A DNA stretch of 64,000 nucleotides from Laetmonice hystrix (GCA_965235115.1 OZ249436.1:4404001-4468000); one strand, 5' to 3'. Counted from the first letter of the stretch, positions 27,021-64,000 are shown. Numbers and translations are program-made. The notes: a model not told the origin generated them from the letters alone.

Positions 27021-29625
27021 GGTCTGGGGACAGGGTGTACGGGTTAGGGTCAGGGCTAGGGATAGCGATAGGTTGGGGAGTCTGGGGACAGGGTGTTGGG
27101 GGATCTGGGGACAGGGTGTATGGGTTAAGGTCAGGGCTAGGGATAGCGATAGGTTGGGGAGTCTGGGGACAGGATGTATGGGTTAGGGTCAGGGCTAGGG
27201 ATAGCGATAGGTTGGGGAGTCTGGGGACAGGGTGTATGGGTTAGGGTCAGGGCTAGGGATAGCGATAGGTTGGGGAGTCTGGGGACAGGGTGTATGGGTT
27301 AGGGTCAGGGCTAGGGATAGCGATAGGTTGGGGAGTCTGGGGACAGGGTGTATGGGTTAGGGTCAGGGCTAGGGATAGCGATAGGTTGGGGAGTCTGGGG
27401 ACAGGGTGTATGGGTTAGGGTCAGGGCTAGGGATAGCGATAGGTTGGGGAGTCTGGGGACAGGGTGTATGGGTTAGGGTCAGGGCTAGGGATAGCGATAG
27501 GTTGGAGAGTCTGGGGACAGGGTGTATGGGTTAGGGTCAGGGCTAGGGATAGCGATAGGTTGGGGAGTCTGGGGACAGGGTGTATGGGTTAGGGTCAGGG
27601 CTAGGGATAGTGATAGGTTGGGGAGTCTGGGGACAGGGTGTATGGGTTAGGGTCAGGGCTAGGGATAGCGATAGGTTGGGGAGTCTGGGGACAGGGTGTA
27701 TGGGTTAGGTTCAGGGCTAGGGATAGCGATAGGTTGGGGAGTCTGGGGACAGGGTGTATGGGTTAGGGTCAGGGCTAGGGATAGAGATAGGTTGGGGAGT
27801 CTGCATGGGGACAGGATGTATGGGTTAGGGTCAGGGCTAGGGATAGCGACAGGTTGGGGGGTCTGGGGACAGGGTGTATGGGTTAGGGTCAGGGCTAGTG
27901 ATAGCGATAGGTTGGGGAGTCTGGGGACAGGGTGTATGGGTTAGGGTCAGGGCTAGGGATAGAGATAGGTTGGGGAGTCTGGGGACAGGGCGTATGGGTT
28001 AGGGTCAGGGCTAGGGATAGCGATAGGTTGGGGGATCTGGGGACAGGGTGTATGGGTTAGGGTCAGGGCTAGGGATAGCGATAGGTTGGGGAGTCTGGGG
28101 ACAGGGTGTATGGGTTGGGGGATCTGGGGACAGGGTGCACGGGTTAGGGTCAGGGCTATAGGGATAGCGATAGGTTGGGGGATCTGGGGACAGGGTGCAC
28201 GGGTTAGGGTCAGGGCTAGGGATAGAGATAGGTTGGGGAGTCTGGGGACAGGGTGTACGGGTTAGGGTCTGGGCTAGGGATAGCGATAGGTTGGGGAGTC
28301 TGGGGACAGGGTGTATGGGTTAGGGTCAGGGCTAGGGATGGCGATAGGTTGGGGGATCTGGGGACAGGGTGTATGGGTTAGGGTCAGGGCTAGGGATAGT
28401 GATAGGTTGGGGAGTCTGGGGACAGGGTGTATGGGTTAGGGTCAGGGCTAGGGATAGCGATAGGTTGGGGAGTCTGGGGACAGGGTGTATGGGTTAGGGT
28501 CAGGGCTAGGGATAGCGATAGGTTGGGGAGTCTGGGGACAGGGTGTATGGGTTAGGGTCAGGGCTAGGGATAGCGATAGGTTGGGGAGTCTGCATGGGGA
28601 CAGGGTGTATGGGTTAGGGTCAGGGCTAGGGATAGCGATAGGTTGGGGAGTCTGCATGGGGACAGGGTGTATGGGTTAGGGTCAGGGCTAGGGATAGAGA
28701 TAGGTTGGGGGTCTGGGGACAGGGTGTATGGGTTAGGGTCAGGGCTAGGGATAGTGATAGGTTAGGGAGTCTGGGGACAGGGTGTATGGGTTAGGGTCAG
28801 GGCTAGGGATAGAGATAGGTTGGGGGATCTGGGGACAGGGTGCACGGGTTAGGGTCAGGGCTAGGGATAGAGATAGGTTGGGGAGTCTGCATGGGGACAG
28901 GGTGTATGGGTTAGGGTCAGGGCTAGGGATAGCGATAGGTTGGGGAGTCTGGGGACAGGGTGTATGGGTTAGGGTCAGGGCTAGGGATAGCGATAGGTTG
29001 GGGAGTCTGCATGGGGACAGGGTGTATGGGTTAGGGTCAGGGCTAGGGATAGCGATAGGTTGGGGAGTCTGCATGGGGACAGGGTGTACGGGTTAGGGTC
29101 AGGGCTAGGGATAGAGATAGGTTGGGGAGTCTGGGGACAGGGTGTATGGGTTAGGGTCAGGGCTAGGGATAGCGATAGGTTGGGGGATCTGGGGGCAGGG
29201 TGTATGGGTTAGGGTCAGGGCTAGGGATAGCGATAGGTTGGGGAGTCTGGGGACAGGGTGTATGGGTTAGGGTCAGGGCTAGGGATAGCGATAGGTTGGG
29301 GGATCTGGGGGCAGGGTGTATGGGTTAGGGTCAGGGCTAGGGATAGCGATAGGTTGGGGAGTCTGGGGACAGGGTGTATGGGTTAGGGTCAGGGCTAGGG
29401 ATAGCGATAGGTTGGGGAGGGGGTTGGGGACAGGGTGTATGGGTTAGGGTCAGGGCTAGGGATAGCGATAGGTTGGGGAGTCTGGGGACAGGGTGTATGG
29501 GTTAGGGTCAGGGCTAGGGATAGCGATAGGTTGGGGAGTCTGGGGACAGGGTGTATGGGTTAGGGTCAGGGCTAGGGATAGTGATAGGTTGGGGAGCCTG
29601 GGGACAGGGTGTATGGGTTAGGGTT
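27021..29625. repeat. 58-bp G-rich minisatellite with telomere-variant hexamers, ~45 copies
   Basis: Unit GGGTTAGGGTCAGGGCTAGGGATAGCGATAGGTTGGGGAGTCTGGGGACAGGGTGTAT. Confidence 0.97.
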
Positions 29626-37102: not shown

Positions 37103-40100
37103 ATGGGGCACCGAACGGTGTCGGCCATACTTGGCCTAATCTGTCTGCTACTGGTCGCCGACAAATCTACCGCGCAAACACGTCAGTATAACTACAGCAG
37201 TCCTCCGATCGGTTGTGTACATAAAAACAGCCCTAGAACCCAAATATCGGCTGCAGCAACATGCATTGCATGCATATTTAATGGGAGTAGATTAGCTTTG
37301 TTGAATCAAATCGGGTAATATTTGGGCCAATTATAATATTCGTAATATTTGAAACTATACATAATATTTGCAACTATACGTAAAATATTTGCAACTATAA
37401 GGAAGCTCTTGTCGCCTGTAAGCAATACCTTTTACGAAGATAATCAGGCACGTACCCAGGATTGTGCTTAGGGGGGGGTTCCATCAGGACAAGAGGGCTG
37501 CCCGGGGGCTACCTGTGTTTTTGCACCAGTCGACCTGGGGGCCGGGGGGGGGGGGTTCCGGAACCCCTGGAACCCCCCCCCCCTGGGTACGTGCCTGATA
37601 ATCCTATTCAATAGGATGTGAGATAGCCCTGATGTGAGATAGCCCTGCAGTTTCCTGTCACCACTTATTGTATTAAACAGAATGTTCGGGAATTATCGAC
37701 CTCGTATTCGTCGTGGACAGTTCGGGTTCCATTCGTGACCAGAACGTAGAGGGACAGAAGGACAACTGGCTGCAGATTTCCGATTTCATGAATCTTTTGG
37801 TTGACCGTCTCGACATAGGACTCAATAAGGCACGGATCGGAGTGGTGGTGTTCAGTAATGTAGGTGCGAACATTTTCTTCCTCAATGACCCTATAAACCA
37901 GGACAAGTCTGCCGTGAAGGCACGAATCTCCGGAATGGTTTACATCGGAGGAAACACCAACACTTCCGGTGGATTACGTGTAATGAACGGCCAACAGTTC
38001 ACGCGGCAGAACGGAGATCGGGACAATGTTCCCAACATCTGCATCGTCATCACAGACGGAGAGTCGACCCGGGACCGGGACCGAACCATCCCGGACGCTG
38101 AGGCCGCCCGACGGCGAGGGATCGAGATCATAGTGGTCGGAGTGACGAACCGTATCAACGAGAACGAACTGAGAGCTATTTCTTCTCCTCCTCAGGCACT
38201 CGGCAGGAACTATTTCAAGTCGGCACGATTCGACGAACTCGATCTGATTGTTGAAGAAATAACGCGAGCAACTTGCTCTGTAGTACAACCCCCTGCACCC
38301 ACGCCAGGTATTTTCCCCTATTTCTGAAATTTTTGAAGTTCAAAATATAAATCTAGCCTTGCAGGGTTGCGTTATGCATTTTGGATGCTGTAATCTTTTA
38401 ACATCCATCGTTAAAACAGACTATATTGTATACGATTTTTATAGGGCAAAGGGGCATTGGGCCAACACGTTTTGATTCTGACTATTCAAAAAAAAAAACA
38501 AGGCGTCGATGTCAATAAAATACAGCAAATGTGTTGGTATTAAGCGCCAAGCCAATAAATGCATTTGGAGCTTAGTGCCCCTTCCCTCCCGCCCCATTTC
38601 AAGTGTTTGTATTTCGATCTCTCAGCCCCAGCCCGACCCGGCCCACCTGGCTTTCCTGGACCACAAGGAGCGACAGGATTCCCAGGCAGCCCTGGACGCC
38701 AAGGAGCAACAGGCCTTCGAGGATCCCCGGGAGGTCCAGGCTTCCCAGGCCCGCAAGGCGCTACCGGATTCCCAGGACCGTCAGGCCGAGACGGCTCGCC
38801 CGGATCCCGCGGAGCACCAGGTTTTCAAGGACCTGCAGGACCTGCCGGCCGCCCCGGAGGAACCGGCGCAACAGGACGATCAGGTCAGATTCTAAACTTT
38901 CAACCATATCTTATGTAAACTTTTACTTAAGTACAAGCAAAGGCTGATGTTCGAGCAGACCTGCCTAAGATCGTCTTTATTTTAATTTGACTTTTCTCAT
39001 TGTTCAACCTCCCGCGCACAGGTCCCGCTGGAGCACCTGGATTCGGTACGCAAGGAAGCCCAGGGACACCTGGTTCTTCCGGACGTCCTGGTTCAACTGG
39101 AGCAACCGGATTCCCCGGATCACGAGGATCGCCAGGCCTGGCCGGATCACCGGGACAACGAGGCTCTCCTGGAAGTGCAGGACCCGCCGGTCCGCGTGGT
39201 TTTGACGGCAGGCCTGGGTCTACTGGAGCGACCGGCTCAGCTGGTATACCTGGCTTCCAGGGCTCGCCTGGACCCGCGGGTCGCGTCGGTCCTGTCGGTC
39301 CTGCAGGCGCACCAGGTCCGCTCGGATCGCCTGGACTAAGAGGTGAGATGGTCTTTTGTATAATTGCACACCTCCCCTTTCAAATTATAGTCATGCAGGG
39401 CTTCCCTACACGCAAATACAATATTAGAACAGATTTTTAAAGGGGAAATAACCATAAAATTCCAGTATCATTGAAATGCTGAAAAAATACTGCAAACAAT
39501 ATTAAAGGTTCCCCTGGCGGCCCCGGATTTCCTGGCAGTACTGGAGCAACTGGATTTCCCGGTCCAAGCGGGCCTGCTGGCCGGCCTGGAGCACGGGGTA
39601 TCGATGGCAGCACAGGGGTACCTGGATTCCCAGGGTCGGTCGGAGCCACAGGACCAAGCGGACGACCTGGGGGTCCTGGGTTCCCCGGATCTACAGGATC
39701 AACTGGCCGATCAGGACCAGTAGGACCGTCGGGTTCACCCGGACGGCCCGGTTCCGTCGGAGCTACTGGATTCCCCGGTGGCAGAGGAAACACGGGTGCC
39801 ACTGGCTTTCCGGGAGCTCGGGGCACAGTTGGTGCAACAGGTATCTAAGTTAGAATTGAAATCTAGTCAGAATTGAAATCTAGTCAGAATTGAAATCTAG
39901 TCAGAATTGAAATCTAGTCAGAATTGAAATTAGTCCAATTGTATCAAGAGCTGAAACTGGTATACACATGTAATGTATTTCTCCTTGTAGGCTTTGAAGG
40001 TCGCCCCGGAAGAGCAGGTGGAACTGGTTTCCCTGGGCCCACTGGTCGCACTGGTGCAACTGGAGCCAGAGGATTCCGTGGTAGCCCCGGAGCGACTGGT

Positions 40101-43100
40101 TTCAGCGGACGACAGGGTGCCACAGGACCGGCGGGGGTTGCAGGCTTCCCAGGAGGACCCGGTCCTGGTGGCAAGTATCTTGATCCTTGCACTGTATTCT
40201 TGCACACCTTTAATAATTACCTTGAAATTACATGATTTTCAAATTGTATTGCTTTTCCACAGGTCGAACCGGATCCACTGGCGCAGTGGGCCCACGAGGT
40301 TTTCCAGGCCCCTCCGGCCCTGGAGGTCGTCCTGGTCAAACTGGATCCACGGGTGCTGCCGGTGCCCGTGGTTTCCCAGGCCCTCAAGGGATTGGACGTC
40401 CTGGTAGTACCGGTGCCACAGGAGCTCGAGGTTTCCCAGGTGGAACAGGTGGACCCGGATTCCCGGGCCGGAGTGGCGCGACTGGCTTCCCAGGGCCTTC
40501 AGGACGACCAGGTACGTTCCTTGTATTGAAATTTATGGAAGTCTCCATTGAAATTGCACCCTGATTAAATTGAATCTGAATAAAATTAAATCTGAATAAA
40601 ATTGAATCTGAGTGGATTGAAAGTTGTATGGTAACACTGATTTGCTTGAAGGACCCTCCGGACCTAGTGGCCTTCCCGGACCCGCAGGTAGACCAGGACA
40701 GATTGGCAGGACAGGAGGTACTGGCGGTCCAGGGTTCCCTGGACCACAAGGAGCGACTGGCTTTGGGGGACGGCCAGGGCAGACTGGTGCGACAGGCTTC
40801 CCAGGGTCTGCCGGCCCAGCAGGACCCCGAGGTTTTCCTGGTAACCAAGGCCGGACAGGGGCAAGTGGTTTCCCAGGACCTTCAGGACCACGTGGTAGCC
40901 CGGGACTGGGTGGACCAGCCGGTAGACCCGGTGCAACTGGCTTCCCAGGACCTGCTGGCCCACTTGGAAGACCAGGTACGCTGTCAATTTGTAGTGGTGA
41001 TGGTGTAGGGATATTTCTTGAAATATTTCAGTTTTGGAATATCCGCTTGGTGCTTTTGTCAAACACTTTAGACTCTTATTTTTAGGACCTGGTGGCCTCC
41101 AGGGACGTTCTGGACGAACTGGGGCTACTGGATTGCCAGGAAGGCAAGGGGGGCCCGGTATAGCTGGTCCAAGGGGATTCCCTGGACCTGCGGGTCCCTT
41201 GGGCTCTCCCGGTAGACAAGGAGGTCCTGGTGTATCTGGACCTACGGGACGGACAGGCGCTACAGGTAGGTGGCTTGTCGCCACAAAATGCTCTCAAAAT
41301 TGTTCACTTGCAAGATGTCGACCTGGTAAATCATTAATACTAAAATTGCTTCTAGGTGCTCGTGGTGGTCCCGGCAGAGTCGGAGCAACTGGCCTCAGTG
41401 GGCCACGTGGTTTCCCAGGAGCAACAGGATTCCCCGGACAAAGTGGGCGGCCAGGAGGTAGCGGAGTACCTGGCGCTAGGGGACTCGACGGCAGACCGGG
41501 TAGGGCAACAAACTATACTCCCGAAATCTTTTCTTCCAAACTTTATCAACCTGTGTTGTGCGACATCCCATTAAATGTTCTAAAAATGACATGTTTAAAA
41601 ATTACATGTGCTGTTGTACATTTAACGTCAACAAGACTACAGGGGTGGGAAAACAATTTTGTTAACTTGAGCTGGATTGGAGACATCCACCTGTTAAGCT
41701 CCACCCTTTTATGCATTTCAGGTCCAAGTGGTCCGGTTGGATTCCCGGGTAGGACAGGAAGTACTGGCGTCCCTGGACCTCGCGGCTTCCAGGGAGGCCC
41801 AGGATCTGCAGGACCTAGAGGCCAGCCTGGCTTCTCGGGTCCAGCTGGGCCTCAAGGAGCAACTGGGCGAAGTGGACCAGCAGGGTTCCCTGGCAGAACT
41901 GGTACGCCTTGAAACTTGATCATGCAGTTTTTCGTTGAAATATGATGTGGCAGTCGTGTCTTATTATTTTAATATCGATTTCAAACAGGTGCGTCGGGAC
42001 AACCCGGTAGAGTTGGCGGCCCAGGGCCGAGCGGTCCAGCTGGACCAAGTGGACGCCCAGGAGGACCAGGTTTTCCAGGACAGACTGGAGCCACGGGGAG
42101 ACCAGGCGTGGCGGGTTTCCAAGGTCGTCCAGGCCCCGCGGGCCCTTCTGGACCACGTGGTTTGGAAGGTGAATGAACTTACCTTTTTTGAAACTTCCTA
42201 ACATTACTTCTCGATGTTTGTTCTAATATGGCTGCCTACGGTCATCTTCGATAATTCGTAATGAGCCGCGTGAGCAGTCTGTCCTTACTGATCTTGAATT
42301 CCCCTTGGGATTGACATGGTAATGTATTTTGAGCAGTCTGTCCTTACTGATCTTGAATTCCCCTTGGGATTGACATGGTAATGTATTTGTACAGGATCAA
42401 CTGGACAACCTGGTAGGCCAGGTGCTGTAGGTTTACCTGGAATACCGGGGCGAGCAGGACGCACTGGTTCAACTGGTTTCCCAGGACCAAGTGGACCCGG
42501 GGGACTTCCAGGTCCCCGGGGTTTCCCAGGTCCCCAAGGCAATGCAGGAGGTCCGGGTAGAGCAGGAGCGACGGGTCTGTTCGGTCCGACTGGCAGGACT
42601 GGCGCGACTGGTGCACGTGGATTTCGAGGGGTCGATGGTGCAACCGGACCGTCGGGTGTGCCCGGATTCCGTGGAGGACCTGGACCTTCGGGAAGGCCCG
42701 GAGGTCCGGGGGCGACGGGACAACCAGGACCAAGGGGTTTCCAAGGCTCCCCAGGGTCGCCAGGAGCTCCTGGAATCGGGAGAACTGGTATGTTTGATTC
42801 ACGCTTCGTTTAAACGGCCCGAAATAAAGTGGAAATTAGTTATAACGCAGGTTTTATATGGCCTCAATAATTGGGGGCAGGGGCATAATCTAAATGTTTT
42901 TCATGCTTATTAGAAATTACCTCTAAAAATGACTCCTGCAGGTGCAACGGGATTCGCGGGTAGGCCTGGATCAGCAGGTCCTGTAGGACCTCCAGGTAGT
43001 ACGGGTCAACCAGGTTTCCCAGGTTCACTGGGACCGGCCGGTCCTCAGGGAGCTACAGGTAGACCAGGATTGTCTGGTCCTCCCGGGTTCGGACAACCCG

Positions 43101-46100
43101 GCCCCCCAGGCGCCACAGGACAGCCAGGATTCCGCGGCTCTCCAGGACCGGCCGGGCCTGCAGGTCGTCCAGGGCCTGAAGGTCGCCCTGGATCGCCCGG
43201 CTCTGCAGGTGGCGGTGGGCCTGCTGCAGGATGCAGCGATACAGATGAATGTAAGAACGGAAATGGAGGATGCCAACATTACTGTGTGGACACCTACGAC
43301 AGCTATTTCTGTGCATGTCGTGTAGGGTACCAGCTCACACGGACACCCATTAACTGTCCCGGAGGTAAGACTGAACAAGTTTTTCATATTGTGTGAATCT
43401 GGCTTTAAACATGGTAAAAACATGGTAATGCATACTATCTTTTCTGTTAGGGTTTGCTTGGGCAGATGAACATCTCTTAATTGGTGTGTTTCAGTGAATG
43501 TCCCGACCCCAACCCCCCAATGTGACCAGACCATCATAGATCTAGTGTTTGTCGTGGATAGTTCGGGATCTATCCGGGACAACAATCCTCCTGATCGTTC
43601 CTATGACAACTGGAATCTCCTGCTCGACTTTATCGCCAACATCGTGGAGCGTCTGTCGATCGGCCCCGACCGGACCCGAATCGGGCTCGTCGAGTACTCG
43701 AACCTTGCTCGCCACGTGTTCTTCCTCAACTCATTCTCCGATAAGAGAACCGTAAAGGACCAGATTCGTAACACTCCATACATTGGTGGCTTCACCAACA
43801 CGTCAGGCGGTCTGAGACTCATGACCTTCGAGCAGTTCACTCCCCGGAATGGTGACCGCCCAAACATTCCCAATGTCGCCATTGTCATCACGGACGGCAA
43901 GTCAAACACAGATCAACAAAGGTCAGATTTCGGTCGCTAAAATCAAATGCCTACTGTCTAGTGATCTTATTACTGTCCGAAAATGTAACTGGTATCGAAT
44001 GCCAAATGAATAACGTAATGATATTGTCTCCAGGACCATTCCGGACGCTGAGGAAGCTCGGAGACGTGGAGTAAAGATGTTTAGTGTTGGTATAACGCAA
44101 GACGTTGATATCAACGAGTTGAGGTTCCTCTCCTCGCCGCCTCAACAACCTGAAAGAGATTACTTCCAATCGGTCGACTTCAAAGAACTGGACCCTTTGA
44201 TCAATAACGTGGTGGAGCAAACGTGTAAAAATCCCGGACCTGCACAGCAGGGTAGGTGCATTCTAAATCATAGTTATGTGCTTGTGTTAATACTTTCTCC
44301 TATATGTTCAAACTTGGTTTTTGTTGCTTGCTTTGCTTTCTGGCTTTGCTCTCTGCCAATGGCTGACTTTGTTTTGTCTAGTGGGACCGGAGTGTTCCCA
44401 AGCCCGCGCCGATCTTGTCTTCGTCCTCGACAGTTCCGGTTCAATCCGGGACGCTAACCCAGCTGACCGTTCCTATGACAACTGGCAACTTATGCTCAAT
44501 TTCATAATTGATTTTGTGAGAGCAATCGAGATATCTCCGTCAACGAACCAAGTCGGTATGGTTCGTTTCTCTGACATTGGAGAGAATCTGTGGTATTTGA
44601 ACACCTATCGTGATAAAGGTAGCTTGATGGATGCTATAAATCGCATAGACTACATCGGATCGAACACCAACACATCCGGGGGACTGCGCGTGCTACGCGA
44701 TCAGTACAATCCGAATCGAGGAGACCGCCCCGGGGTGAAAAACATCGCTATTATTCTGACGGATGGAGCATCTACGTTTGACCGAGATAGAACGATTCCT
44801 GACGCCCGAAGAATTCGGAATATTGGCGTACAGATATTCAGCGTAGGAATCACGCGAAGTGTCAACGAAAATGAACTCCGGGAAATGTCTAGTCCTCCTC
44901 AACAGTTGGAAAAGAACTATTTCCTCTCGCCAGACTTCAGAGAATTATCTAGAATACGAGAACAAATTGTCTCAGAAACCTGTTCTGCGTCTCAAGCCTC
45001 GCAACCAGGTAAAAGTTTCGACTGTTGGCGACTAACAAATTTGGTAAATGATGTATACCAATAAAGGAACCCTAACCAGATTCCGTGGCAGAATGGGACT
45101 TTCTGACAAGATTGTGTGTCGTCCGAATTAGGTGTTACACTGATTACGAAGTTATAAACCATGAGTCCACACCACGCCATGGGATGAACTCCAGGAATGA
45201 CTTCGTTCATTTGTTCATAATTTGCATATTTTGTGTCCGGTACTTTAACAACTCCAAGATATTTAGGACGCGGGAATTGATTGACTCTTGGCTCAGTCTT
45301 TGCTAACAGCCCTAACGAAAACATTGTTTGATTCTTGTCTGTCTTTGCTAAAGCCCTTAGCGGAAACATTGTATGACTTTTTTCAGGAGGTAACACGGAA
45401 AATCTCTTCTGTCGGTGGACAGCCGAAGCGGGATACATATGCTTTTGTCGCTTTTCCGAGTGCGATAGGCGGCCAGTCAACAGCTCACAGTGCAGCAGTG
45501 AGTAATTAGAAAGTGTGGAAGTGGCCAATAAGGTCTTGGTGGGAGATGATGCTTTAGTAGAAACTCTATGTTGTATACATTATTTCGTGTTTGATTACAT
45601 TACCTGGATATCAATGTTTTTTTACCCCCAGATATCAATGAATGCTCGTTCAACAATGGCGGATGTCAACAGGACTGTAGTGACTCTGAGGGTAGCTTCT
45701 CGTGTAGATGTCGTACGGGTTACGTTCTCTCCGGTGATCGCTGGTCGTGTGACGGTGAGGTTTTTTCTTTAGGATGTTTGTGTTTTTAGAAGTTGTTGGT
45801 AATCTGTGTATAGTAATTTCTGAAATGTCTGAAGATATTTACAAGTTGTATGTATATCCGCAGACAACAATGAGTGCCTGGTTCCGTCAGTCTGTCGAAA
45901 CAGTGGCGACATCTGTGTTAATACGTATGGCAGCTTCTACTGCATCTCCTCAAACGGTAAGTGACGCTTACCAAACTCCCAATGATATAATTTCAAAATA
46001 AACAAGTGAAGTTTGATAATTCTACCGTTGATCCTTGGCGAGTCATTTCAATGTCATTTTAAACTTTTTCCCGTGTTTCAGTGGTGTCTCGGTTCAGCGC

Positions 46101-46425
46101 CCAATCCGCGGCCCTGACCGACGGGTCCCCCGGGGCGGCGGAAACAGTTGGAGCGACTACCAGCACCTCGACCACAGTCCTCGCCACCATCTTGGCTGCC
46201 ATATTGGGTGTCATGGTAACGGTTGCTGTGGTACTTGGTCTGCGCCAGGCACGACGTTGTCGTCGTCCTGACGACGGGAAACGGTGGAAAAGTGCAGGAG
46301 GACGTCTCTTCACCGACGCAGGTTCTCTCCGGAGTTTCATGGCGTCCACATCGGATACGTCCATGGCCAGCATTGACGACGATCTGGCTTCTCAATTTCC
46401 CGGAGAAATTAGTACGGTCTCCTAA
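37103..46425 (+). CDS. vWA/EGF-containing collagen (collagen VI/XXVIII-like domain order) with a ~1000-aa triple helix and a C-terminal transmembrane segment, ~1900 aa
   Basis: Manual splicing gives one open frame of 5703 nt. Exons: 37103-37181, 37681-38307, 38626-38883, 39022-39342, 39508-39840, 39991-40170, 40263-40511, 40652-40975, 41086-41265, 41356-41499, 41722-41901, 41989-42168, 42395-42787, 42942-43364, 43495-43921, 44034-44251, 44382-45008, 45632-45754, 45864-45956, 46082-46425. Signal peptide [19 protein letters not shown]. Three vWA domains carry DLVFV(V/L)DSSGSI, TNT and (I/L)TDG MIDAS motifs. EGF-Ca domains [16 protein letters not shown] and [18 protein letters not shown] segment [22 protein letters not shown] is followed by RQARR. 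Confidence 0.93.
37445..37597. mobile_element. Intronic MITE with perfect 16-bp TIRs and ATAAT target duplication
   Basis: ATAAT|CAGGCACGTACCCAGG ... CCTGGGTACGTGCCTG|ATAAT. Confidence 0.85.
39852..39935. repeat. 17-bp intronic tandem repeat x5
   Basis: AGAATTGAAATCTAGTC; starts ~11 nt after the donor at 39841. Confidence 0.9.
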
Positions 46426-48372
46426 CAATAGAATGTGGAACATTTTGTACAGAATTTTGTAAGCAAAGTCTGACTTTATGGACTTGCTGTGTTTTTGTAT
46501 GTTGACTTTGCTCAGTATTTGTTTGTACGAGGGTGACTAACAGCCGTAGGTTTACAAGTCTACGGTTACTAACATAAAGCTGTTACTGTGTATGCAACTT
46601 GGAGAATCTGGTCTTTTCATAGCTGGCAGTGTGATTTGCTAAAACAGAAATATTGTACACTTGACAATCCGGTCTCTCCATCGACCGTACATGGACAATA
46701 AATCGTAAACCATACTTTCTCCTATTTGTATTTTCTGGCCTCGTGTCCCTGTAGTCCCCAATTATCGCCGCCCATGTTGGCTTCACTGGCCTAGATCGGA
46801 TATCTTCGTCTCGTAAAAAATGGGAGATTGCCGCGTTGTTAGAACTTCGGTCGTAATATTAGCCGACCCGGTTCGGACCTTATGTGTCCGGGGGGGGCTG
46901 GCTGGCGAATAGTCCGGTGGAAGAACTTCCGTTTTCGTAACGCTATATGGTGTGGGAGTGATAGGGCCGTGGGGGATTCTATATCTAGGTCCTATATTCT
47001 TACCCGTGACGTCACGGCAGTTCCCCGACTTGAGCCGCACCTTTTATAGCCCCGAGTTCCAGGGCCCAGTTTTTGACTTTTCCACCGTGAGCATGAGCTC
47101 ATTCTCAATTTTCGTGCTTTTTTTTTTTGTTTTTTGTTTCCATGAGGCGTGCTCGTGGCGAGGCAAGCTCGCGGAAAAACACCCCCAAAACAAACTGAGC
47201 ATGAGCTCCTGGATCCGCCACTATTCCATGCCAGTCTCGACATAGATCTACACTTCCAGGGTCGTGCCCCTTCTAACCCCCCCCCCCCCCTATTAAATAC
47301 CAGATCTGCCCTGTGACAATCTTGGTCTACGTCTCGTGGTTACAGTAACCAGCAGCCTCCCATTCACTTTTAAAACGATCTGGTTATTAAACAGCCTAAT
47401 TAGTGAGACGGGCCCCACTGGCCTTTCCCAAATTCCTGGGGCGGGTTGCACTTACGGTCCTACGGGTTAGGACTGAATTTAGTACCAGCCCTCTGTTCGC
47501 GCCCCCCCCCCACACACACACACACACACACAAGCAAAAAAAGAGTCGCACTTCAGTATCAATATCATTTACTTTACGTCTCCTTTAGGCCTACGTTGAT
47601 GGTTGGGTTTTCTTGCACTTTTTGTAAGGTTTCCTGATCTCCGCCCCAGCAGAGGCTGGATACGGGCCTGTTGTTGGCATAGGCCTATCTACGCCAGACA
47701 CAAGAGGCGGGCACAAAGATTTATGTGGTCAACGTTAGATAACCTATAGCTTTTTGACGGTGCCCTCTTGGGTCCAAAGGTCCCTGTTTTAGGAAAAAAA
47801 TAAAATCAGTACCCTTTTTGTATAGGCTAGAGTAAAAATCTTAATGATCGTCTCCCCTTTGTTTGGCAATTTCCGAAAAAAGACGTTGCTTAGGGGGGGG
47901 GGCTCCCCCCTGTTCTTGACCTTTTTAGCCTGGTTCTCAGGTCTACTCAAGCCCTTTTCGGTTCGCGGTCTCCGCAGTAGACTCGACAACCAGTCCTCGA
48001 GCGACCTCTAGCGAGAAAGGGCCACACGTTGGCGCCGCCTGTCGGTTTCTATGAGAATAACGACAGGTGGCAGCACTCATGGATTCAGGCCAGACCGGGA
48101 CAGAAAATGGAAAATCGATTGTAAAAGCTTAGAGCAAAGCGCATACAAAAAATCTGCCATTTATTGTTACTTTGGCGAGAGCCGAAAGTATTTGAGTTGT
48201 TTTTAGAGGCTTTACCTCTGCTCTGTCAACCAAGAATTATACTTTTTGTGTCACCCTCGTCCGCATTTCGGCCCGCCTGTGGATGTAGACTGGTCCCCTG
48301 TCCACCACTTACATCCAGTGTAACCACAGATTATATTTGTGTATGCTAATCTGTGGTGTAACTGTGGATGTT

Positions 48373-48581
48373 AGCTGGTTCTCGGCTCACTCGCTAGGGG
48401 GCTCTGGGGTCGAGCGTCGACCCCTGACTGGTCCCCCGCTAACTCCTCCCGCCCTGTTCAACTCCTATCGGAGATAGAGACAGGTACACAGCAGCGCGTT
48501 AGCCGAAGAGCGGGAGGAGTTAGCAGGGGACCAGTCAGCGTCGACCCCAGAGCCATCTAGCGAGTGAGCCGGGAAACAGCT
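48373..48581. mobile_element. Long imperfect inverted repeat (MITE-like) directly upstream of COMMD10
   Basis: AGCTGGTTCTCGGCTCACTCGCTAG...CTGACTGGTCCCC.GCTAACTCCTCCCGC is mirrored by GCGGGAGGAGTTAGCAGGGGACCAGTCAG...CTAGCGAGTGAGCCGGGAAACAGCT. Confidence 0.7.
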
Positions 48582-48659
48582 CACTGTCGCTGACGGTCAA
48601 CAGGTGGCAGCACTAGGCGTCCAGTAGAGAGGGCGGTGTCACGGTGTTTGAAGAAGAGG

Positions 48660-51600
48660 ATGGCGCTCATGTTTACAGCCACAGCAAAGTAAGTTTCATG
48701 GCAATCATTTACCGGTAGTATCAGGGGTTATACGTGAATTCATGGTTTCAGTGTCGATCGTTTAGACGTAGGTATACAGGGCCGATTGACGTTTTGCAAC
48801 TGCGTATTGATGAATTAACTTATTATCGCCCACGAACACAGCCACAACTCGCTGTCTCAGTCTCACCCTGTCACTGCCACTGGCCAGTCACGTCGGCCTG
48901 ATTAGGCCATGGGGCAATTTGTTGCATTCGACGCGTTGCATGGCGTTTTTGGCGGAAATTTAGTGAATTGCCTTCCAGTATTGCAGTACATTTTTAGGGT
49001 TTTTGCACAAGGCAGACATTCCTCACGCTGGTATCAATGCCAACAAATGGGACACGAGTTCGAACCCTTCTAATCTAGGGATTTATCTTTTTCTACCGTT
49101 ATTTTGCCTGTATTGAATTCGTTTATGGATTAGGCCTAGGGGTATTTTCTTTCGGATATTGGGTTAGATAGCGGTTAGGGTTAGTGTTAGTGTTTAAAGT
49201 TTGAGGAATGTCTGCCCTGCGCCCAAGCTTTAGGGCCGTAGCCCGTAGACAATCTTGGAATTTTGGAGGGGAAGGGCTTACCTACTAGAACTGCTCTGCA
49301 CTACTGCAGTGGCAGTACTTAGCACATTCGGGAATCCTCGGCCATATCTTCGAAAGTAGCCTCGGGTGAAATAGGCGCCATGTTAAGCATTGCATCGCGG
49401 GTACATTTAGCTGGGACTCTCGCTAGCATGGCAGTGCTTGCAGTATTTTGCCTGCATCAGGCATGAAAGCAACTAAAATAGGCCTCCAGTGTTTTCCCCA
49501 TAGTCAGTGGGCAATATTACGAGAGTATCATGTTCATGAGACAAGTAGTCGTACCATCTGTCGTGGTGCTGTCGTTCATGGGCGCCGCCATATTGCTTCC
49601 CATAATTTGATAAATTACCGTATCACGCCCATTTAGGTAAATTAGGTAATTGATATTTCAGTTCAAACGTTCCCCTTCATGCCACAAAATATATATTTGC
49701 ACATACAATGCCAAGAAGCCGGTTTCAATAAATATATATACACTACTTTCTGGCTCGATGGGATATGACGGTTCACTCAGTGCCTCGCTACACAGGTCGA
49801 TTTGGCCATGTATCTGGTTGCCAATGGCGCCCATTTCACCCGAGGGTATATGCAGATATGACGTCATATGCCCGAGGGAATCCCGAATGTACTTAGCAGT
49901 ACACTAGGCTTATTAAGGTCTCACCATGGACCGGTAATCAATGTATCCAACCCAAACCCATTACATATCAATACAATGACTTTCAATACAAAGAAAAAGT
50001 ATTTTTGATGTAAAAAAATGTTTAGATATCTCAGGGTTTCTGCCAGAGGGTAAAATGGGTAAAATTCCGTACCCTAAAATTTTTCCAGGGTACGGATCCC
50101 TACCCTCAAAATCGTTGGGTAGTCTCGAGTTGGAAACCCCATAACAGGCGCAGGGAACTACCATCTCAAAAAGCTGTGGCGTGGATGATGCATGGTTCAG
50201 ATGACTGGACTTCATAGGCCATTATAGTGGTCAACCATAATGTTGTTCCATTGTCTCACTCGACTGTATATGTTGGGGGAATCTTATCTTCATTTATTAC
50301 TGGTCTTTTGTTAGTTCCTGTTGTAATACTCCAACAAATCACATGTACATTTCATGTATACCCTTTAGATAGCACAGCTGTCAAAAAGCAATAATGTTGG
50401 ATGAGTTTTCTTTCCTTTGTAGCATTAAGAAAGCAGTGGCATTGCTGAATGGACTGCATGACACAAAATTTCCACGCTTGTTATCCAGGATCGTGCAGAA
50501 ACTACATCTAAAGGTAAGTGACAAGTAACAAACAGCTATGTAATGTTGAAAAACAACTTTAGCTGGTGAATGTTATTATTGGTATTATTCCACCAGTTAA
50601 ATTGGATCACAAATTTTGAACTGTAATGTTGCATGGAAGTAGGTGTTTTCAATAACACCATCAGAGAGTTGCAGTAGTTTTACAGTGACGTACCAGGGTG
50701 AGCTGCTGCAATGTGTAGCTCACCTTGTTCTGTATTGTCAGGATGAGTCAGAGAGTTGCAGTAGTTTTACAGTGATGTACCAGGGCGAGCTGCTGCAATG
50801 TGTAGCTCACCTTGTTCTGTATTGTCAGGATGAGTCAGAGAGTTGCAGTAGTTTTACAGTGACGTACCAGGGTGAGCTGCTGCAATGTGTAGCTCACCTT
50901 GTTCTGTATTGTCAGGATGAGTCAGAGAGTTGCAGTACCGTAGTTTTACAATGATGCACCAGGGTGAGCTGCTGCAATGTGTAGCTCACCTTGTTCTGTA
51001 TCGTCAGGATGAGTCAGAGAGTTGCAGTAGTTTTATAGTGATGTACCAGGGTGAGCTGCTGCAATGTGTAGCTCACCTTGTTCTGTATTGTCAGGATGAG
51101 TCAGAGAGTTACAGTAATTTTACAGTGATGTACCAGGGCGAGCTGCTGCAAGGTGTAGATCACTTTGTTCTGTATTGTCAGGATGAGTCAGAGAGTTGCA
51201 GTAGTTTTACAGTGATGTACCAGGGTGAGCTGCGAGCTGCTGCAATGTGTAGATCACTTTGTTCTGTATTGTCAGGATGAAAGGACTTTCAGTGAGAAAG
51301 AAGAGGAGATATTAGAAGATGTCCTTGAATTGAGTAGCAGTGACCTCGAGCTGGTTCTTGAGGCCTGTGAGTTCTTCCTACATCAAGCAGCCTATCATTC
51401 AGCCAAACCCACTGTACTTGGCCAGCAGCTGCAGCAACTCGGCCTAGACGACTCCAAGGTTTGTCATTCAGAACTACTTCGTAATTTTTCTAGAATTTCG
51501 CAGATCAAAGGAGAGGATTGGACAGATATTAATTTAAAGGGAGCCGTAAAATTCATTTTTTCGATTTATGGCAGTCTTAGAAACATATGATTCGCATTCC

Positions 51601-54600
51601 TTGGACTCCCAGTAACATCATGTGAGACTGTTATGGCCCAACGACCAGTATTTAGAAAGGAAAACATGCGGTATTTAGGTCAACGCTAGACTAGAGGGAG
51701 ATTCCCTTCCACACCCGGAAGTCACGTGATCACGCGTCATCATCGCCCGACCGCGGCCAACTCAAATATCCTGTGGGCCGCTCGCTAATTCTGAGCTACG
51801 TATTTGCGAGAGATTTGGCATATTTTCCTTACTAAATACTGGTCGCTGGGCCATAACAGTCTCACATGATGTTACTGGGAGTCCAAGGTATGCGAATCAT
51901 ATGTTTCTAACTTAATCTAAGACTGCCATAAATCGAAAAAATGAATTTTACGGCTCCCTTTAAGAAACGATGTTGCTGTAAGCAGTAGTCTAAGATCATA
52001 TTTACAAAGAGGCTGACTTGAAATAAAAAGAGGCTGACTTGAAATCCTTTTTTATAGTACTTGCTATTTAGAGCAGCCAGAATACTTTTTTTTTTTTTAA
52101 TTGACCATCTTTCAACAGGAGTAACCACTCGGCTATATCTGCTGTTACAAATGTTATGTGGACTTCTTATTATAGGTAGGCTAATTTGTGAGAGACAGGG
52201 AATTAAAGGGGGCTGCCATACTGCCCAGTTTCTAGGCTGTTGAATGCTACAATCTATCTATTGACATGATTTAGCCTGTTTGTATTGTTCAGTGTTCATC
52301 TGGCCCGTTTTATTCAGGTGAGTGTACTTACTGAGGCCTGGGCAGGCAGTGCGAGAGAGGTTGTAGAAAGGTTACGCCGGAGGACACTGGCCCCCAAACA
52401 GGTAGGCTACAGATACAAGCTGTTGGCCTTGGCCTCACAATGAAATCATCAACTTTAACATAGGCACATTATTCAAAAACACTGTGAATTCTTACATCTT
52501 GGGCTAGAATTATGTTTCTTTTTGAACATTTCACGAGGCCCTGATAAACTGGTCAGATTTAAATATATTCTACAATACAGGACATGTTTACCTTTACTTA
52601 TGTGAAAGAAACAATATTTACAACTCAGTATTAAATCTTAGAATCAAACATGCAAAGTGTATGTTTTGGGAAAGGAATCTAGGTCAACTAGAACTCGGTG
52701 TGAGAGTAAAGAGAAACTCTTGTGGCCACTGGCACGGATTTTGTGTTCTGACCTGCAGCTGGAGACAGTTAATTGGCGCCTGAACCTTCAGATGGCGCAA
52801 TCATCGCAAGCCAAGCTGAAGCAGCCGAACGCCATGTTGGAGCTCGGAATCCGAGATGAGGATGGAGAGGTATTTTTCTTTTGAAATGCGCGGGCATCAG
52901 GGGTAACCCTATTACTTTGACAATGTCCCTAAAGAGAAAAGTTGTATAGTCCTCTACAGGAATCGAACCCCGGCCCCAAGATTACTGCACCCATTCGCAT
53001 AGCATAAGGTGTCGACATCCATGCCAGCTAGGCTTTAACAGTGGCTCTGGGAGGGCTTCTTGTCTCAGCTTTACCCCCTCCTCCCCACATCACCACACCA
53101 AATTTTTTATATGAAAGGACAAGAAACGAAACTATTTTTTTTTTTGGCCTTACTGGGGTATGTACAAAAACCAGTAGAAATGAAGTAATTGTCAATGTTA
53201 CCAAAATTATGACAGGTGAAATTTTAACAAAAAATTTGAAGAAGTAATTTCATTGAAATGCAGGCTGGTGATCCATAGTTCTGTGTCTTCCTTCAATAAT
53301 GATTACACGTCATGATTAATTTTGACTTTGATTTAATTGCAGGGAAATCAGCAGGTCCGAATGGAATTCACTCATGACGAACTGTACCGATTTTATGAAC
53401 AGGTAATTTCAACACTCAGTTAAACAGGGGACCTCTCTTTCAACACTCAGTTAAACAGGGGACCTCTCTCTCAACACTCAGTTAAACAGGGGACCTCTCT
53501 CTCAACACTCAGTTAAACAGGGGACCTCTCTCTCAACACTCAGTTAAACAGGGGACCTCTCTCTCAACCCTCAGTTAAACGGGGACCTCTCTCTCAACAC
53601 TCAGTTAAACAGGGGACCTCTCTCTCAACACTCAGTTAAACGGGGACCTCTCTCTCAACACTCAGTTAAACAGGGGACCTCTCTCTCAACACTCAGTTAA
53701 ACAGGGGACCTCTCTCTCAACACTCTGTTAAACAGGGGACCTCTCTCTCAACACTCAGTTAAACAGGGGACCCCTCTCTCAACACTCAGTTAAACAGGGG
53801 ACCTCTCTCTCAACACTCAGTTAAACAGGGGACCTCTCTCTCAACACTCAGTTAAACAGGGGACCTCTCTCTCAACACTCAGTTAAACAGGGGACCTCTC
53901 TCTCAACACTCAGTTAAACAGGGGACCTCTCTCCCAACACTCAGTTAAACAGGGGACCTCTGTCTCAACACTCAGTTAAACAGGGGACCTCTCTCCCAAC
54001 ACTCAGTTAAACAGGGGACCTCTCTCTCAACACTCAGTTAAACAGCTAGGAGACCTCTCTCTCAACACTCAGTTAAACAGGGGACCTCTCTCTCAACACT
54101 CAGTTAAACAGGGGACCTCTCTCTCAACACTCAGTTAAACAGGGGACCTCTCTCTAAACACTCAGTTAAACAGGGGACCTCTTTCTCAACACTCAGTTGG
54201 ACAGGGGACCTCTCTCCCAACACTCAGTTAAACAGGGGACCCCTCTCTCAACACTCAGTTAAACAGGGGACCTCTCTCTCAACACCCAGTTTAACAGGGG
54301 ACCTCTCTCTCAACACTCAGTTAAACAGGGGACCTCTCTCTCAACACTCAGTTAAACAGGGGACCTCTCTCTCAACACTCAGTTAAACAGGGGACCTCTC
54401 TCTCAACACTCAGTTAAACAGCTAGGGGACCTCTCTCAACACTCAGTTAAACAGGGGACCTCTCTCTAAAACACTCAGTTAAACAGGGGACCTCTCTCTC
54501 AGGGTTTGTCAGCCAAGGTCACACGTACATGACCTCAGTAACAGTCACTTAAGTAAGATGATAGTACATTTATGATCTGGCTGTAGAAACTTTGTGAGAA

Positions 54601-55521
54601 TTCAGTTTAAAAATAAAGTTACATGTACATGTGGACGTGGTAGACGTATATTAGATGTTAACAGAAAAAAAGACATTCCAGACCTTTTCTTGAATTAGAG
54701 TAATGATCAACAGACAAGTTGAAGTGTATGAGGTTTCTAGTTTATATAAACGTGTTTACATGCCTCAAGACTGGAGAATCTCAGTTATAATCTGTTTGCT
54801 GTTTTCTGGCCAACATGATGATGTCCTGAGACCTGATAGCATACATTAAGTTAACATGTTATTGTCTTCACCACGACGGCTAGTCGACAGTGGTGACTGG
54901 TATGTGATAGGTGAATTCAGCAGTTTTACATCGGTTTCAGTGTGATAGGTGAATTCAGCGGTTTTACATCGGTTTCAGTGTGATAGGTGAATTCAGCAGT
55001 TTTACATCGGTTTCAGTGTGATAGGTGAATTCAGCAGTTTTACATCGGTTTCAGTGTGGTAGGTGAATTCAGCAGTTTTACATCGGTTTCAGTGTGATAG
55101 GTGAATTCAGCAGTTTTACATTGGTTTCAGTGTGATAGGTGAATTCAGCAGTTTTACATCGGTTTCAGTGTGATAGGTGAATTCAGCAGTTTTACATCGG
55201 TTTCAGTGTGATAGGTGAATTCAGCAGTTTTACATCGGTTTCAGTGTGATAGGTGAATTCAGCAGTTTTACATCGGTTTCAGTGTGATAGGTGAATTCAG
55301 CAGTTTTACATCGGTTTCAGTGTGATAGGTGAATTCAGCAGTTTTACATCGGTTTCAGTGTGATAGGTGAATTTAGCAGTTTTACATCGGTTTCAGTGTG
55401 ATAGGTGAATTCAGCAGTTTTACATCGGTTTCAATGTGATAGGTGAATTCAGCAGTTTTACATCGGTTTCTCTTTCTTACAGCTGGAAACGGTACAGAAA
55501 CAGTTGGATTCGTTGAGTTGA
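48660..55521 (+). CDS. COMMD10: COMM domain-containing protein 10 (Commander/CCC complex subunit), 198 aa
   Basis: Exons 48660-48688, 50423-50513, 51276-51458, 52318-52401, 52759-52869, 53343-53402, 55483-55521; all introns GT-AG and phase-consistent (597 nt). Protein [51 protein letters not shown]...[30 protein letters not shown]...[25 protein letters not shown] matches the COMMD10 sequence as I recall it (FPRLLxRIxQKLHLK; WxLNLQMA; LETxQxQLDSL). Confidence 0.95.
49005..49222. mobile_element. Intronic MITE-like element with 21-bp TIRs
   Basis: GCACAAGGCAGACATTCCTCA ... TGAGGAATGTCTGCCCTGCGC (19/21 match); internal GGTTAGGGTTAGTGTTAG. Confidence 0.65.
50661..51280. repeat. 87-bp tandem repeat x7 that includes the COMMD10 exon-3 splice acceptor
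   Basis: Each unit ends TTGTTCTGTAT(T/C)GTCAG|GATGA. Confidence 0.95.
51538..51959. mobile_element. Kolobok-type non-autonomous DNA transposon (TTAA TSD, AG...CT ends, ~130-bp TIRs)
   Basis: TTAA|AGGGAGCCGTAAAATTCATTTTTTCGATTTATGGCAGTCTTAG ... CTAAGACTGCCATAAATCGAAAAAATGAATTTTACGGCTCCCT|TTAA. Confidence 0.85.
52925..53030 (-). mobile_element. Possible tRNA-derived SINE head remnant
   Basis: Pol III B-box GGTTCGATTCC on the minus strand (GGAATCGAACC at ~52959). No full cloverleaf seen; boundaries approximate. Confidence 0.35.
53409..54500. repeat. 31-bp intronic minisatellite, ~35 copies
   Basis: Unit CAACACTCAGTTAAACAGGGGACCTCTCTCT; begins ~6 nt after the exon-6 donor. Confidence 0.97.
54903..55470. 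repeat. 38-bp intronic minisatellite, ~15 copies
   Basis: Unit TGTGATAGGTGAATTCAGCAGTTTTACATCGGTTTCAG; ends 12 nt before COMMD10 exon 7. Confidence 0.97.
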
Positions 55522-56081
55522 AGGTATCTTACGCCAGTTTGTTTTACTCGAATGGTAAATGTTTTTTGAACCAGGGCCGTGTGCAAGGATTTAAATGTAT
55601 TTGACTATGTATAAGCCTAAAGGGTACAATGTTATGATAAAGTGTCATATTATGTTGTAAATAATGACGTCAGCAAAATAATCCATGAACCATCGTACAT
55701 TCCTTGTTTGTCACAATGCTGTCACATGGCGAATAGGTCACCTATTCGTGCACCCAACGTGAACACTTAGTTCAAGAGAGTTGTCATTTACAATATGTCA
55801 AAAACAATATACATCAATATACGTATCTGTTTACATCGTTACTACACTCTTTGAAATGTAAAGGATTTGGGGTGATGGACCTAACGACTGATATTGAGTG
55901 GTTTGAAACATTTCAGATACAGACCTGTAATTAAGGGGAATCCTTCATAGGAAATAAAATCATGTTAAATGCCACTTGAAGCTTATTGCGCTTGGTTCAG
56001 TTATTTGTAGAAGTAATATACACCTATCAGTTCAGTCCGAAAGGCAATGCCAGGCCCGGTTACTGAGAATGAGCTTATTAA

Positions 56082-56239
56082 CCACTTGCCGGCGGGATTA
56101 ATGTTTAATTATCTGACCCCTGGTCGGGTTAATTCTGTAAATTACATGTATTTTAATGCAATTTTTTGCGTATATACGTCATCCGTTAGAATGGAAGGTT
56201 CAATGCATGCGTATATACACGTCATCCGCCGGGAAGTGG
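56082..56239. mobile_element. piggyBac-type MITE (TTAA TSD, CC...GG ends)
   Basis: TTAA|CCACTTGCCGGCGG ... CCGCCGGGAAGTGG|TTAA (13/14 TIR match). Confidence 0.75.
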
Positions 56240-56275
56240 TTAATACCATTACATGTAAGTTCTCAAGTTCCCCTG

Positions 56276-56428
56276 GGGTGCGTTTCAATAAAGCCCAAAG
56301 ATATCTTTGAAAGCTTCACTGGAGCCAGGTTCGAGGGTTTTATTCAAACACTCGCTCTCTCCCCATCCAGACTGCACTAGTCCAAAGATATCTTTGGCAA
56401 AGATATCTTTTGATATTAAAACGCACTC
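56276..56428. mobile_element. PIF/Harbinger-type MITE (3-bp CTG TSD)
   Basis: CTG|GGGTGCGTTTCAATA ... TATTAAAACGCACTC|CTG, with internal CAAAGATATCTTTG palindromes. Confidence 0.6.
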
Positions 56429-56444
56429 CTGGAGCCTCCACTGC

Positions 56445-63928: not shown

Positions 63929-64000
63929 TATATTTTCACGACGGATTGTCCGAAAAAACCCTGAGCCCCCCCCCCTGCCTCTTAAAGCTATGGATATGGA

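Follow-up and report, generated by a model that had tools for sequence, protein, structure and literature searches.

An apparent type I transmembrane collagen with von Willebrand factor A domains encoded in the genome of Laetmonice hystrix

Can a collagen rod be held at the surface of an animal cell by the C-terminal end of its chain? This question is raised by a stretch of 64,000 nucleotides from Laetmonice hystrix (GCA_965235115.1 OZ249436.1:4404001-4468000), referred to below as the window, which corresponds to C1:4404001-4468000 in the 627-Mb, 35-contig host genome that was searched. An initial annotation made from the sequence had proposed that positions 37103-46425 encode a membrane collagen with von Willebrand factor A (vWA) as well as EGF domains. 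In the analysis presented here, this interval of the plus strand is read as one gene of 21 exons, with a 5808-nucleotide (nt) coding sequence for 1935 amino acids (aa) and a lone stop codon at the end. The interval as a whole is best explained as an intact animal gene that is present in a single copy, is under selective constraint and encodes a type I transmembrane collagen, which we consider likely, and the structural reading of its product as a type I membrane-anchored vWA collagen is held with high confidence.

Open stretches with vWA, Gly-X-Y and EGF character follow one another in a row between 37103 and 46425 on the plus strand. All frame-compatible GT/GC-AG pairs between neighbouring open stretches were scored and the boundaries were then set by eye. 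The resulting junctions are GT-AG at every position but one, a GC donor at 40171, and the introns are in phase 1 throughout, except for the phase 2 intron at 43921/44034 inside the second vWA domain. The ATG at 37103 is preceded by an in-frame stop. The initial hand model contained 20 coding exons, and exon 18 was added later by homology to relatives; it occupies 111 nt (45387-45497) within a supposed 623-nt intron, with the acceptor TTTTTTCAG, the donor GTGAGT and phase 1 on both sides. The initial annotation had placed all of its listed features correctly, but its protein of ~1900 aa lacked this Cys-rich exon. The transmembrane exon and the Cys-rich exon have one match each in the 627-Mb genome, and no tandem paralogues or related coding exons were found elsewhere in the 64-kb window. 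The features of the gene are as follows.

37103..37181, plus strand: exon 1, start codon and signal peptide (donor CAC/GTCAGT, phase 1)
37681..38307, plus strand: exon 2, N-terminal vWA1 with intact metal ion-dependent adhesion site (MIDAS) motif (Pfam VWA, E 5e-36)
38632..43364, plus strand: exons 3-14, Gly-X-Y helix; exon 14 also carries an extra Cys and the first calcium-binding EGF domain, cbEGF1 (splice model, Pfam)
38632-38883, 39022-39342, 39508-39840, 39991-40170, plus strand: exons 3-6 (splice model)
40263-40511, 40652-40975, 41086-41265, 41356-41499, plus strand: exons 7-10 (splice model)
41722-41901, 41989-42168, 42395-42787, 42942-43364, plus strand: exons 11-14 (splice model)
43495-43921, 44034-44251, plus strand: exons 15-16, vWA2, split by the sole phase 2 intron (Pfam VWA)
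44382..45008, plus strand: exon 17, vWA3 (Pfam VWA, E 4.9e-38)
45387..45497, plus strand: exon 18, five-Cys motif and N-glycosylation sequon (homology; aligned with 22 relatives)
45632..45754, plus strand: exon 19, cbEGF2 (Pfam FXa_inhibition, E 4.7e-10; EGF_CA, E 1.5e-6)
45864..45956, plus strand: exon 20, truncated four-Cys cbEGF (Pfam EGF_CA, E 3.8e-6, covering 3-29 of the 43 profile positions)
46082..46425, plus strand: exon 21, Ser/Thr-rich stalk, transmembrane segment, RQARRCRR stop-transfer, 60-aa tail and stop
46177..46242, plus strand: transmembrane segment of 22 residues, aa 1854-1875 (Kyte-Doolittle 2.78, the protein's highest peak)
46697..46702, plus strand: candidate poly(A) signal, the first AATAAA 3' of the stop, 272 nt after it (pattern search)

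The predicted protein therefore runs, in order, through a signal peptide, a vWA domain, a helix of 1004 aa, a cbEGF, two further vWA domains, the Cys-rich motif, a cbEGF, a truncated cbEGF, a stalk, a transmembrane segment and a tail. Pfam was run on the nine exon translations that are non-helical or span a boundary, the other exons being pure Gly-X-Y. At the N-terminus, a hydrophobic h-region is followed by a small-x-small cleavage site (STA/QT), and together with a hydropathy peak and the upstream in-frame stop these features agree with the signal peptide that had been proposed. Three Pfam VWA domains were identified, with vWA2 detected in two parts across its intron (E 2e-31 for profile positions 1-117 and E 4.6e-5 for positions 124-171). 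The residues DxSxS, TNTSGG and TDG are kept in all three (vWA1 reads DSSGS, TNTSGG and ITDG), in line with the earlier description of a MIDAS-intact vWA at the N-terminus and two more towards the C-terminus, and the three domains are 50-56% identical to one another. The Gly-X-Y helix, described as ~1000 aa, was measured at 1004 aa (aa 239-1242, genomic 38640-43225) and consists of 332 triplets with four two-residue G-x-G breaks; Pfam Collagen matched two exons (E 2.3e-17 and 2.2e-13). The EGF domain that follows the helix (FXa_inhibition, E 1e-9) and the complete and truncated EGF domains after vWA3 were likewise recovered by Pfam, the truncated one as a partial EGF_CA match in 45864-45956. 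An extra Cys stands directly after the helix, five residues ahead of the first EGF Cys, in the model and in those relatives that reach this position, and it and the five-Cys motif are candidates for inter-chain bonds. No COLFI propeptide, a feature of fibrillar collagens, was matched among the nine translations.

Membrane anchoring is assigned to the last exon, where the Ser/Thr-rich stalk (40 aa, 40% Ser/Thr), the 22-residue hydrophobic segment, the basic RQARRCRR and the tail of ~60 aa are all present at 46082-46425 as first annotated; Pfam found no match in this exon. In a 19-residue Kyte-Doolittle scan of the whole protein, hydropathy exceeded 1.6 only at the N-terminus and at aa 1848-1878, so that the C-terminal segment is the sole internal peak. 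The transmembrane prediction is additionally upheld by relatives, since the transmembrane segment, the basic stop-transfer and a tail of 45-70 aa with a shared motif occur in 23 of 23 aligned sequences, and by an AlphaFold2 model of one of them (P0043, from a 22-row alignment, with a mean predicted local distance difference test score, pLDDT, of 75.5), in which a single helix at residues 376-416 matches the transmembrane segment (core pLDDT 71-90). In the same model the vWA domain is confident, the two EGF-type domains reach pLDDT 79-93, the Cys-rich motif is modelled as a hairpin of low confidence (pLDDT 52-59), and the stalk and tail are disordered. A glycosylphosphatidylinositol anchor in place of a transmembrane segment was considered and rejected because a hydrophilic tail of 60 aa with a conserved motif follows the hydrophobic segment.

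A search with vWA3 against the longer proteins of a large protein collection returned 56 matches. The Cys-rich motif was present in 20 of these, and all 20 end in a hydrophobic segment; three further matches have the transmembrane segment with a variant of the motif. In relatives this motif lies between the last vWA and the next EGF and reads YC.WT.E.G..C.C....CD.RP.NGT.C, and exon 18 fits its family-defining five-Cys form, C..C.C..C..P.N.[ST].C, which stands before cbEGF2. The truncated four-Cys EGF is found in 22 of the 23 aligned relatives, and the aligned tails share the motif GS-L-RSF...IDDDL...STVS, composed of an RSF part and an acidic-Ser part. A scan of metagenome contigs with the three vWA domains of the model gave 65 loci. 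The contigs named JAAU... (L006-L066) are many of them genomic-looking, with open reading frames (ORFs) covering 5-47% of the contig and single vWA exons of ~210-300 aa, and these loci seem to derive from eukaryotic multi-vWA genes that contain introns.

In a tree of 29 distinct sequences, built from the last vWA and the C-terminal module, the median end branch is 0.58 and several clades are well supported. One of these clades (P0052, P0041/L003, L022, L027, L031 and L033) has helices of ~1860 aa and one membrane-proximal vWA, and across the family the number of membrane-proximal vWA domains varies from one to three. L003, L004, L022 and L027 (L004 was not in the tree) carry two furin-type sites, RKKR and RV[KR]R, in the stretch from cbEGF1 to the membrane-proximal vWA, while the window gene, L002 and L005, with helices of ~920-1006 aa, have no furin-type site in the ectodomain. 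In the four relatives with furin-type sites the helices measure 1861-1881 aa (~530 nm if fully helical), and an acidic, helix-like linker lies between the two sites. Positions 1-1000 of L005 encode two vWA domains before the helix, so the number of tip domains also varies within the family.

The only named member of the family is a partial annelid protein from Lamellibrachia satsuma (P0038). It lacks the truncated EGF, and between its EGF1 and vWA stands a long AVVYLAVVYL... run, which has the look of a repeat or of an intron translated by a gene predictor, and not of real protein. The vWA domain alone has its best named matches among mollusc and annelid proteins, and these matches point to a probable lophotrochozoan host. 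The transmembrane exon, searched alone against the longer proteins of the same large collection, gave no match among 1947 candidates, and a profile of the C-terminal module gave 147 matches there, nearly all of them multi-EGF proteins of the fibrillin, LTBP or fibulin type, with only P0015 and P0023 belonging to the family. When a profile of 21 relatives was run against 1.84 billion representatives, the top 150 matches were mostly multi-vWA or multi-EGF proteins and included one new member, P0302, and no full-length member. In the ESM Atlas, the C-terminal module of P0029 retrieved generic EGF clusters with a best score of 0.84 and no lead. The window gene belongs with its relatives to an old, diverse and conserved family that shares the C-terminal membrane anchor, and one that is apparently unstudied.

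Whether the transmembrane exon belongs to the collagen gene, as the initial annotation had assumed, was addressed through relatives in which helix and anchor share one ORF, through the positions of helix breaks and through DNA variation. Relatives run from helix to transmembrane segment in a single ORF, for example P0004, one of several transcript-like relatives, with 1186 aa from within the helix to the tail on a contig of 3774 nt, and L003, L022 and L027 (~8 kb each), whose uninterrupted ORFs of 2428-2447 aa encode helix, EGF, vWA, Cys motif, EGF, truncated EGF, transmembrane segment and tail and are followed by a 3' untranslated stretch. At the other end, in the Pfam-confirmed architectures of L002, L004 and L005 an N-terminal vWA precedes the helix and the domains that come after it, and the L002 ORF aligns with the model in one collinear segment (residues 29-1499, 51% identity). 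The offsets of the helix breaks are 404/907/960 for the model, 406/909/962 for L002 and 309/812/865 for L005, with identical spacings of 503 and 53 residues in all three. The exon joins between breaks 404 and 960 (approximately exons 7-14) are thereby supported, because a wrong join would break the shared spacing.

Three DNA runs from one sample of Laetmonice hystrix were mapped on the gene; they are genomic, as their contigs include introns. The variants considered comprised 40 of 92 single-nucleotide variants (SNVs) and 12 indels, apart from 7 further indels. All 12 of the indels considered fall in introns, with exons making up 62% of the span (chance ~8e-6). Among the SNVs considered, 21 are exonic and change 19 codons, 16 synonymously and three not (I814T, A1236P and A1846V). 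This set includes a synonymous SNV in exon 1 (37114), four of four synonymous SNVs in exon 2, and two synonymous codon changes in exon 18 (AGG>AGA and the double-base change AGC>TCC, which keeps Ser). Exon 21 has two synonymous changes, the conservative A1846V and no indel among these variants, and this largely synonymous pattern in the last exon, together with the single-ORF relatives, places the transmembrane exon in the same gene as the collagen exons.

The helices of the family share a particular composition. Lys occurs 0-1 times in each of 12 family helices of 259-1864 aa (none in the model and 0-1 in 11 relatives), and acidic residues are rare. At Y positions, Thr accounts for 20% in the model and for 14-55% over 14 family sequences (the model and 13 relatives), whereas a collagen VI-like control, P0045, shows 3% Thr and 20% Lys there. 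The model helix contains no Lys and 81 Arg, with a net charge of +73. A conserved polycationic helix was considered as a functional feature and rejected because the net charge ranges from +2 to +117 among relatives.

The surroundings of the gene consist of repeats. It stands alone among minisatellites, for which Tandem Repeats Finder returned 34 rows at a score of at least 200 in window positions 1-36000 and 47000-64000. These include a G-rich 58-bp unit in 43.6 copies at 27095-29624, which accounts for the GC-skew peak, a 43-bp unit in 52.7 copies at 19889-22175, a 63-bp unit in 27 copies at 57698-59376, a 29-bp unit in 46 copies at 6638-7977, and (TTC)113 at 9653-9991. No other obvious cellular gene was found in the window among stop-free stretches of at least 130 aa, which yielded only repeat-derived frames and a reverse transcriptase ORF. 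The latter is a 378-aa frame at 59363-60496 on the plus strand (Pfam RVT_1, E 1.3e-29), a retroelement fragment flanked by a 61-63-bp satellite.

Two introns of the gene also carry repeated sequence. In intron 1, the contigs of all three DNA runs have 24 other bases in place of the 183 at 37414-37596, and the summed depth in the bin around this segment is 2600-13400 compared with ~50 elsewhere, which suggests that the assembled haplotype contains an inserted high-copy repeat here that the other haplotype lacks. Intron 12 contains an exact 59-bp tandem duplication (42271-42388) just 5' of the exon 13 acceptor. Elsewhere in the same genome, at C12:6880000-6953000 on the minus strand, at least 60 tandem vWA exons are 46-52% identical to vWA3 and repeat at ~1015 bp and ~2283 bp, many with equal scores. 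At this locus stands a giant multi-vWA gene, or else a gene array, that was amplified recently.

Several points weigh against the reading of the window gene as a type I membrane collagen. The splice junctions were derived from consensus, relatives and DNA variation, and none was directly observed in RNA. The signal-peptide exon has no counterpart in relatives and is uncorroborated by them because all of the relatives are 5'-truncated. No single relative record spans the distance from the N-terminal vWA to the transmembrane segment, so that the full architecture is assembled from overlapping partial records, in which L004 or L005 supplies the N-terminal part and P0004, L003, L022 or L027 the C-terminal part. 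Both large profile searches were swamped by multi-EGF and multi-vWA proteins, and the named relative is one partial annelid protein. The strong positive charge of the helix (+73) is not conserved. Additionally, the transmembrane and signal peptide calls come from hydropathy, conservation and the AlphaFold2 helix in a relative, and trimerisation, the direction in which the helix folds, ligand, tissue and function are matters of inference.

With these points in mind, a working of the protein can be proposed from general knowledge of Gly-X-Y helices. Three chains, their C-terminal anchors close together in the membrane of the endoplasmic reticulum, would associate through the membrane-proximal module, and the triple helix would then zip up from its C-terminal end towards the N-terminus and so away from the membrane. 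Collagen folding is described as starting at the C-terminus and running to the N-terminus in the available part of PMC11923368, and this usual direction means that folding would here start next to the membrane. The product would be a rod of ~290 nm (1004 x 0.286 nm) that stands on the cell surface and carries three vWA domains at its tip, with six more close to the membrane. Both sets may bind matrix ligands, probably collagens, as suggested by the kinship of these vWA domains with collagen-binding domains, and the conserved tail, which suggests an intracellular partner, may couple the molecule to it. Such a molecule could act as a cell-to-matrix tether or anchoring filament, a function that we put forward tentatively from the sequence, at somewhat less than even chance. 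The product of the window gene lacks furin-type sites in its ectodomain and so probably stays anchored, while the two furin-type sites in one branch of relatives indicate that the proteins of that branch are probably released.

The alternative that survives best is that the anchor is transient, and that the protein is the precursor of a secreted matrix collagen (e.g., cuticular or pericellular) which is held at the membrane for oriented assembly and then shed, as are the ectodomains of the MACIT membrane collagens treated below. The two conserved furin-type sites in L003, L004, L022 and L027 are in line with shedding, as is the resemblance of the Lys-free, Thr-rich helix to annelid cuticle collagen, as far as the latter is described in the available part of PMC11766948, and proteases other than furin could also release the rod. 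However, R-x-[KR]-R occurs in the window protein only once, inside the cytoplasmic stop-transfer, L002 and L005 have no such site, and the conserved motif in the cytoplasmic tail argues for a lasting membrane-bound role. We therefore regard a transient anchor as a possible but rather unlikely explanation for the window gene.

An improbable but more specific proposal draws the permanent and the transient anchor together. The family would supply lophotrochozoan or annelid-type cuticle, or another apical matrix, with its Thr-rich, Lys-free collagens. Each chain would be made as a type I membrane protein, and the secreting epidermal cell, perhaps at its microvilli, would hold and orient the rods of 0.3-0.5 micrometres by their C-terminus; galactosylated Thr at Y would stabilise the helix and replace hydroxyproline and Lys cross-links, and the furin branch would be cut loose while the branch of the window gene would stay as a permanent link between cell and matrix. 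Annelid cuticle collagens have a very long triple helix with globular domains, and glycosylated threonine stabilises that of Riftia, according to the accessible portions of PMC11766948 and PMC11923368. The new family is alike in its Thr-rich Y positions and near absence of Lys. Its helices (1004-1868 aa) would be ~290 or ~530 nm long and thus shorter than annelid cuticle collagen molecules, which are reported to be micrometres long. We know of no identified genes for annelid-type cuticle collagens.

Less probable still is that the gene is the invertebrate counterpart of a secreted vWA family, either collagen VI or AMACO/VWA2, with lineage-specific additions, and thus a member of a known family instead of a new class. 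Among solved chains, the closest to the vWA domains are collagen VI alpha3 (9han_C), the collagen-binding mussel protein PTMP1 and the I domains of integrin alpha1/alpha2; for vWA3 the nearest solved structures are collagen VI alpha3 and PTMP1, and the collagen VI alpha3 matches reach E 3e-62 and 1e-71 when summed over several domains. Collagen VI also has one N-terminal and two C-terminal vWA domains of related sequence around its helix, and it forms beaded filaments. The initial annotation had likened the gene to collagen VI for this one-plus-two arrangement, and the kinship in vWA sequence bears this out, but the domain order fits AMACO/VWA2 better.

The available part of PMC10095167 gives the order of AMACO as VWA1, Cys-rich, EGF1, VWA2, VWA3, EGF2 and a unique end, and describes it as a secreted protein that associates with Fraser-complex cords and has non-calcium-binding EGF domains. 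Its globular domains therefore stand in the same VWA-X-EGF-VWA-VWA-EGF order as those of the window protein (compared by description, not sequence). Both candidates differ, however, in what surrounds these domains. Collagen VI has a short helix of ~335 aa, and most collagen VI-like representatives have one of 297-333 aa with Lys, at 20% of Y positions in P0045, whereas the helix here has 1004 aa and no Lys; collagen VI is secreted and has neither EGF nor transmembrane segment, whereas the window protein ends in a transmembrane segment and tail. AMACO lacks a transmembrane segment and, as described in that source, its EGF domains do not bind calcium where those here are cbEGF domains, and it has a Cys-rich spacer at the position of the helix. 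The weakest alternative, a gene-model artefact in which the transmembrane or signal-peptide exon comes from a neighbouring or overlapping gene, can be set aside as very improbable. The exon model was indeed hand-built from splice consensus and not from RNA, but the same order recurs in uninterrupted ORFs of relatives, the window holds no other related coding exon between flanks of minisatellites and a retroelement fragment, and SNVs and indels agree with the frame in every exon that has data, exons 1, 18 and 21 among them.

If the reading as a type I membrane collagen is right, chain polarity would be opposite to that of the described type II membrane collagens, and the family would represent a second animal route to a collagen rod at the cell surface. 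It would add one more family to the matrix receptors of a large section of animals in which no genetic model exists. Its Lys-free, acid-poor helix with Thr at Y and residue-exact break positions would offer a natural system for the study of helix stability without hydroxylysine cross-links. Additionally, the family is a candidate link to the poorly understood annelid-type cuticle collagens and a possible evolutionary bridge between collagen VI and AMACO.

Full-text literature searches found no description of a type I vWA collagen and, in agreement with the initial annotation, no described class of this architecture. In reviews of the metazoan and echinoderm matrix, vWA collagens without a known function are mentioned, none of them with a transmembrane segment in the portions available (PMC3308698, PMC10381214). 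The closest systems by anchorage are the MACITs, membrane collagens whose triple helix is interrupted, of which XIII, XVII, XXIII and XXV have been described as type II proteins with membrane-bound and shed forms in the accessible text of PMC5583603, as the initial annotation had maintained for the characterised membrane collagens. The available part of PMC10381214 mentions furin processing of collagens XIII and XXV, and a choanoflagellate membrane collagen likewise has an N-terminal transmembrane segment, according to the accessible part of 10.1101/2021.10.08.463732.

The MACITs, including nematode COL-99, resemble the window protein in having a collagen triple helix, a single-pass anchor and a large ectodomain, and their shed forms have a parallel in the branch of the new family with furin-type sites. 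They contain several short collagenous domains separated by non-collagenous stretches and, to our knowledge, no vWA or EGF domains. The helices of type II membrane collagens fold from the N-terminal, membrane-proximal end. In contrast, the window protein has a signal peptide and an anchor 60 aa from its C-terminus in place of an N-terminal anchor, one helix of 1004 aa with only four G-x-G breaks, flanked by vWA and EGF domains, and no furin-type site in the ectodomain.

The overall layout has an analogy in the streptococcal proteins Scl1 and Scl2, in which an N-terminal globular head and a collagen-like rod are held by a C-terminal anchor at the cell surface. These are bacterial proteins with short helices and a cell-wall anchor, unrelated in sequence to the new family, and the analogy is one of layout only. 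A closer parallel in possible function is given by MUP-4 of C. elegans, a type I protein that has EGF and vWA domains and links the epidermis to the collagenous cuticle, as described in the accessible part of PMC2150763. MUP-4/MUA-3 are alike in being type I proteins with EGF repeats and vWA, an EGF next to the transmembrane segment, and attachment of epidermis to an apical matrix. Unlike the window protein, they have, in that account, no collagen helix, at least 28 EGF repeats, SEA modules and a filaggrin-like tail of 213 aa; the exon translations of the window gene gave no Pfam match to SEA modules and contain three EGF-type domains only. By analogy, MUP-4/MUA-3 may serve as a functional model, although not as a relative, for how the new family might work.

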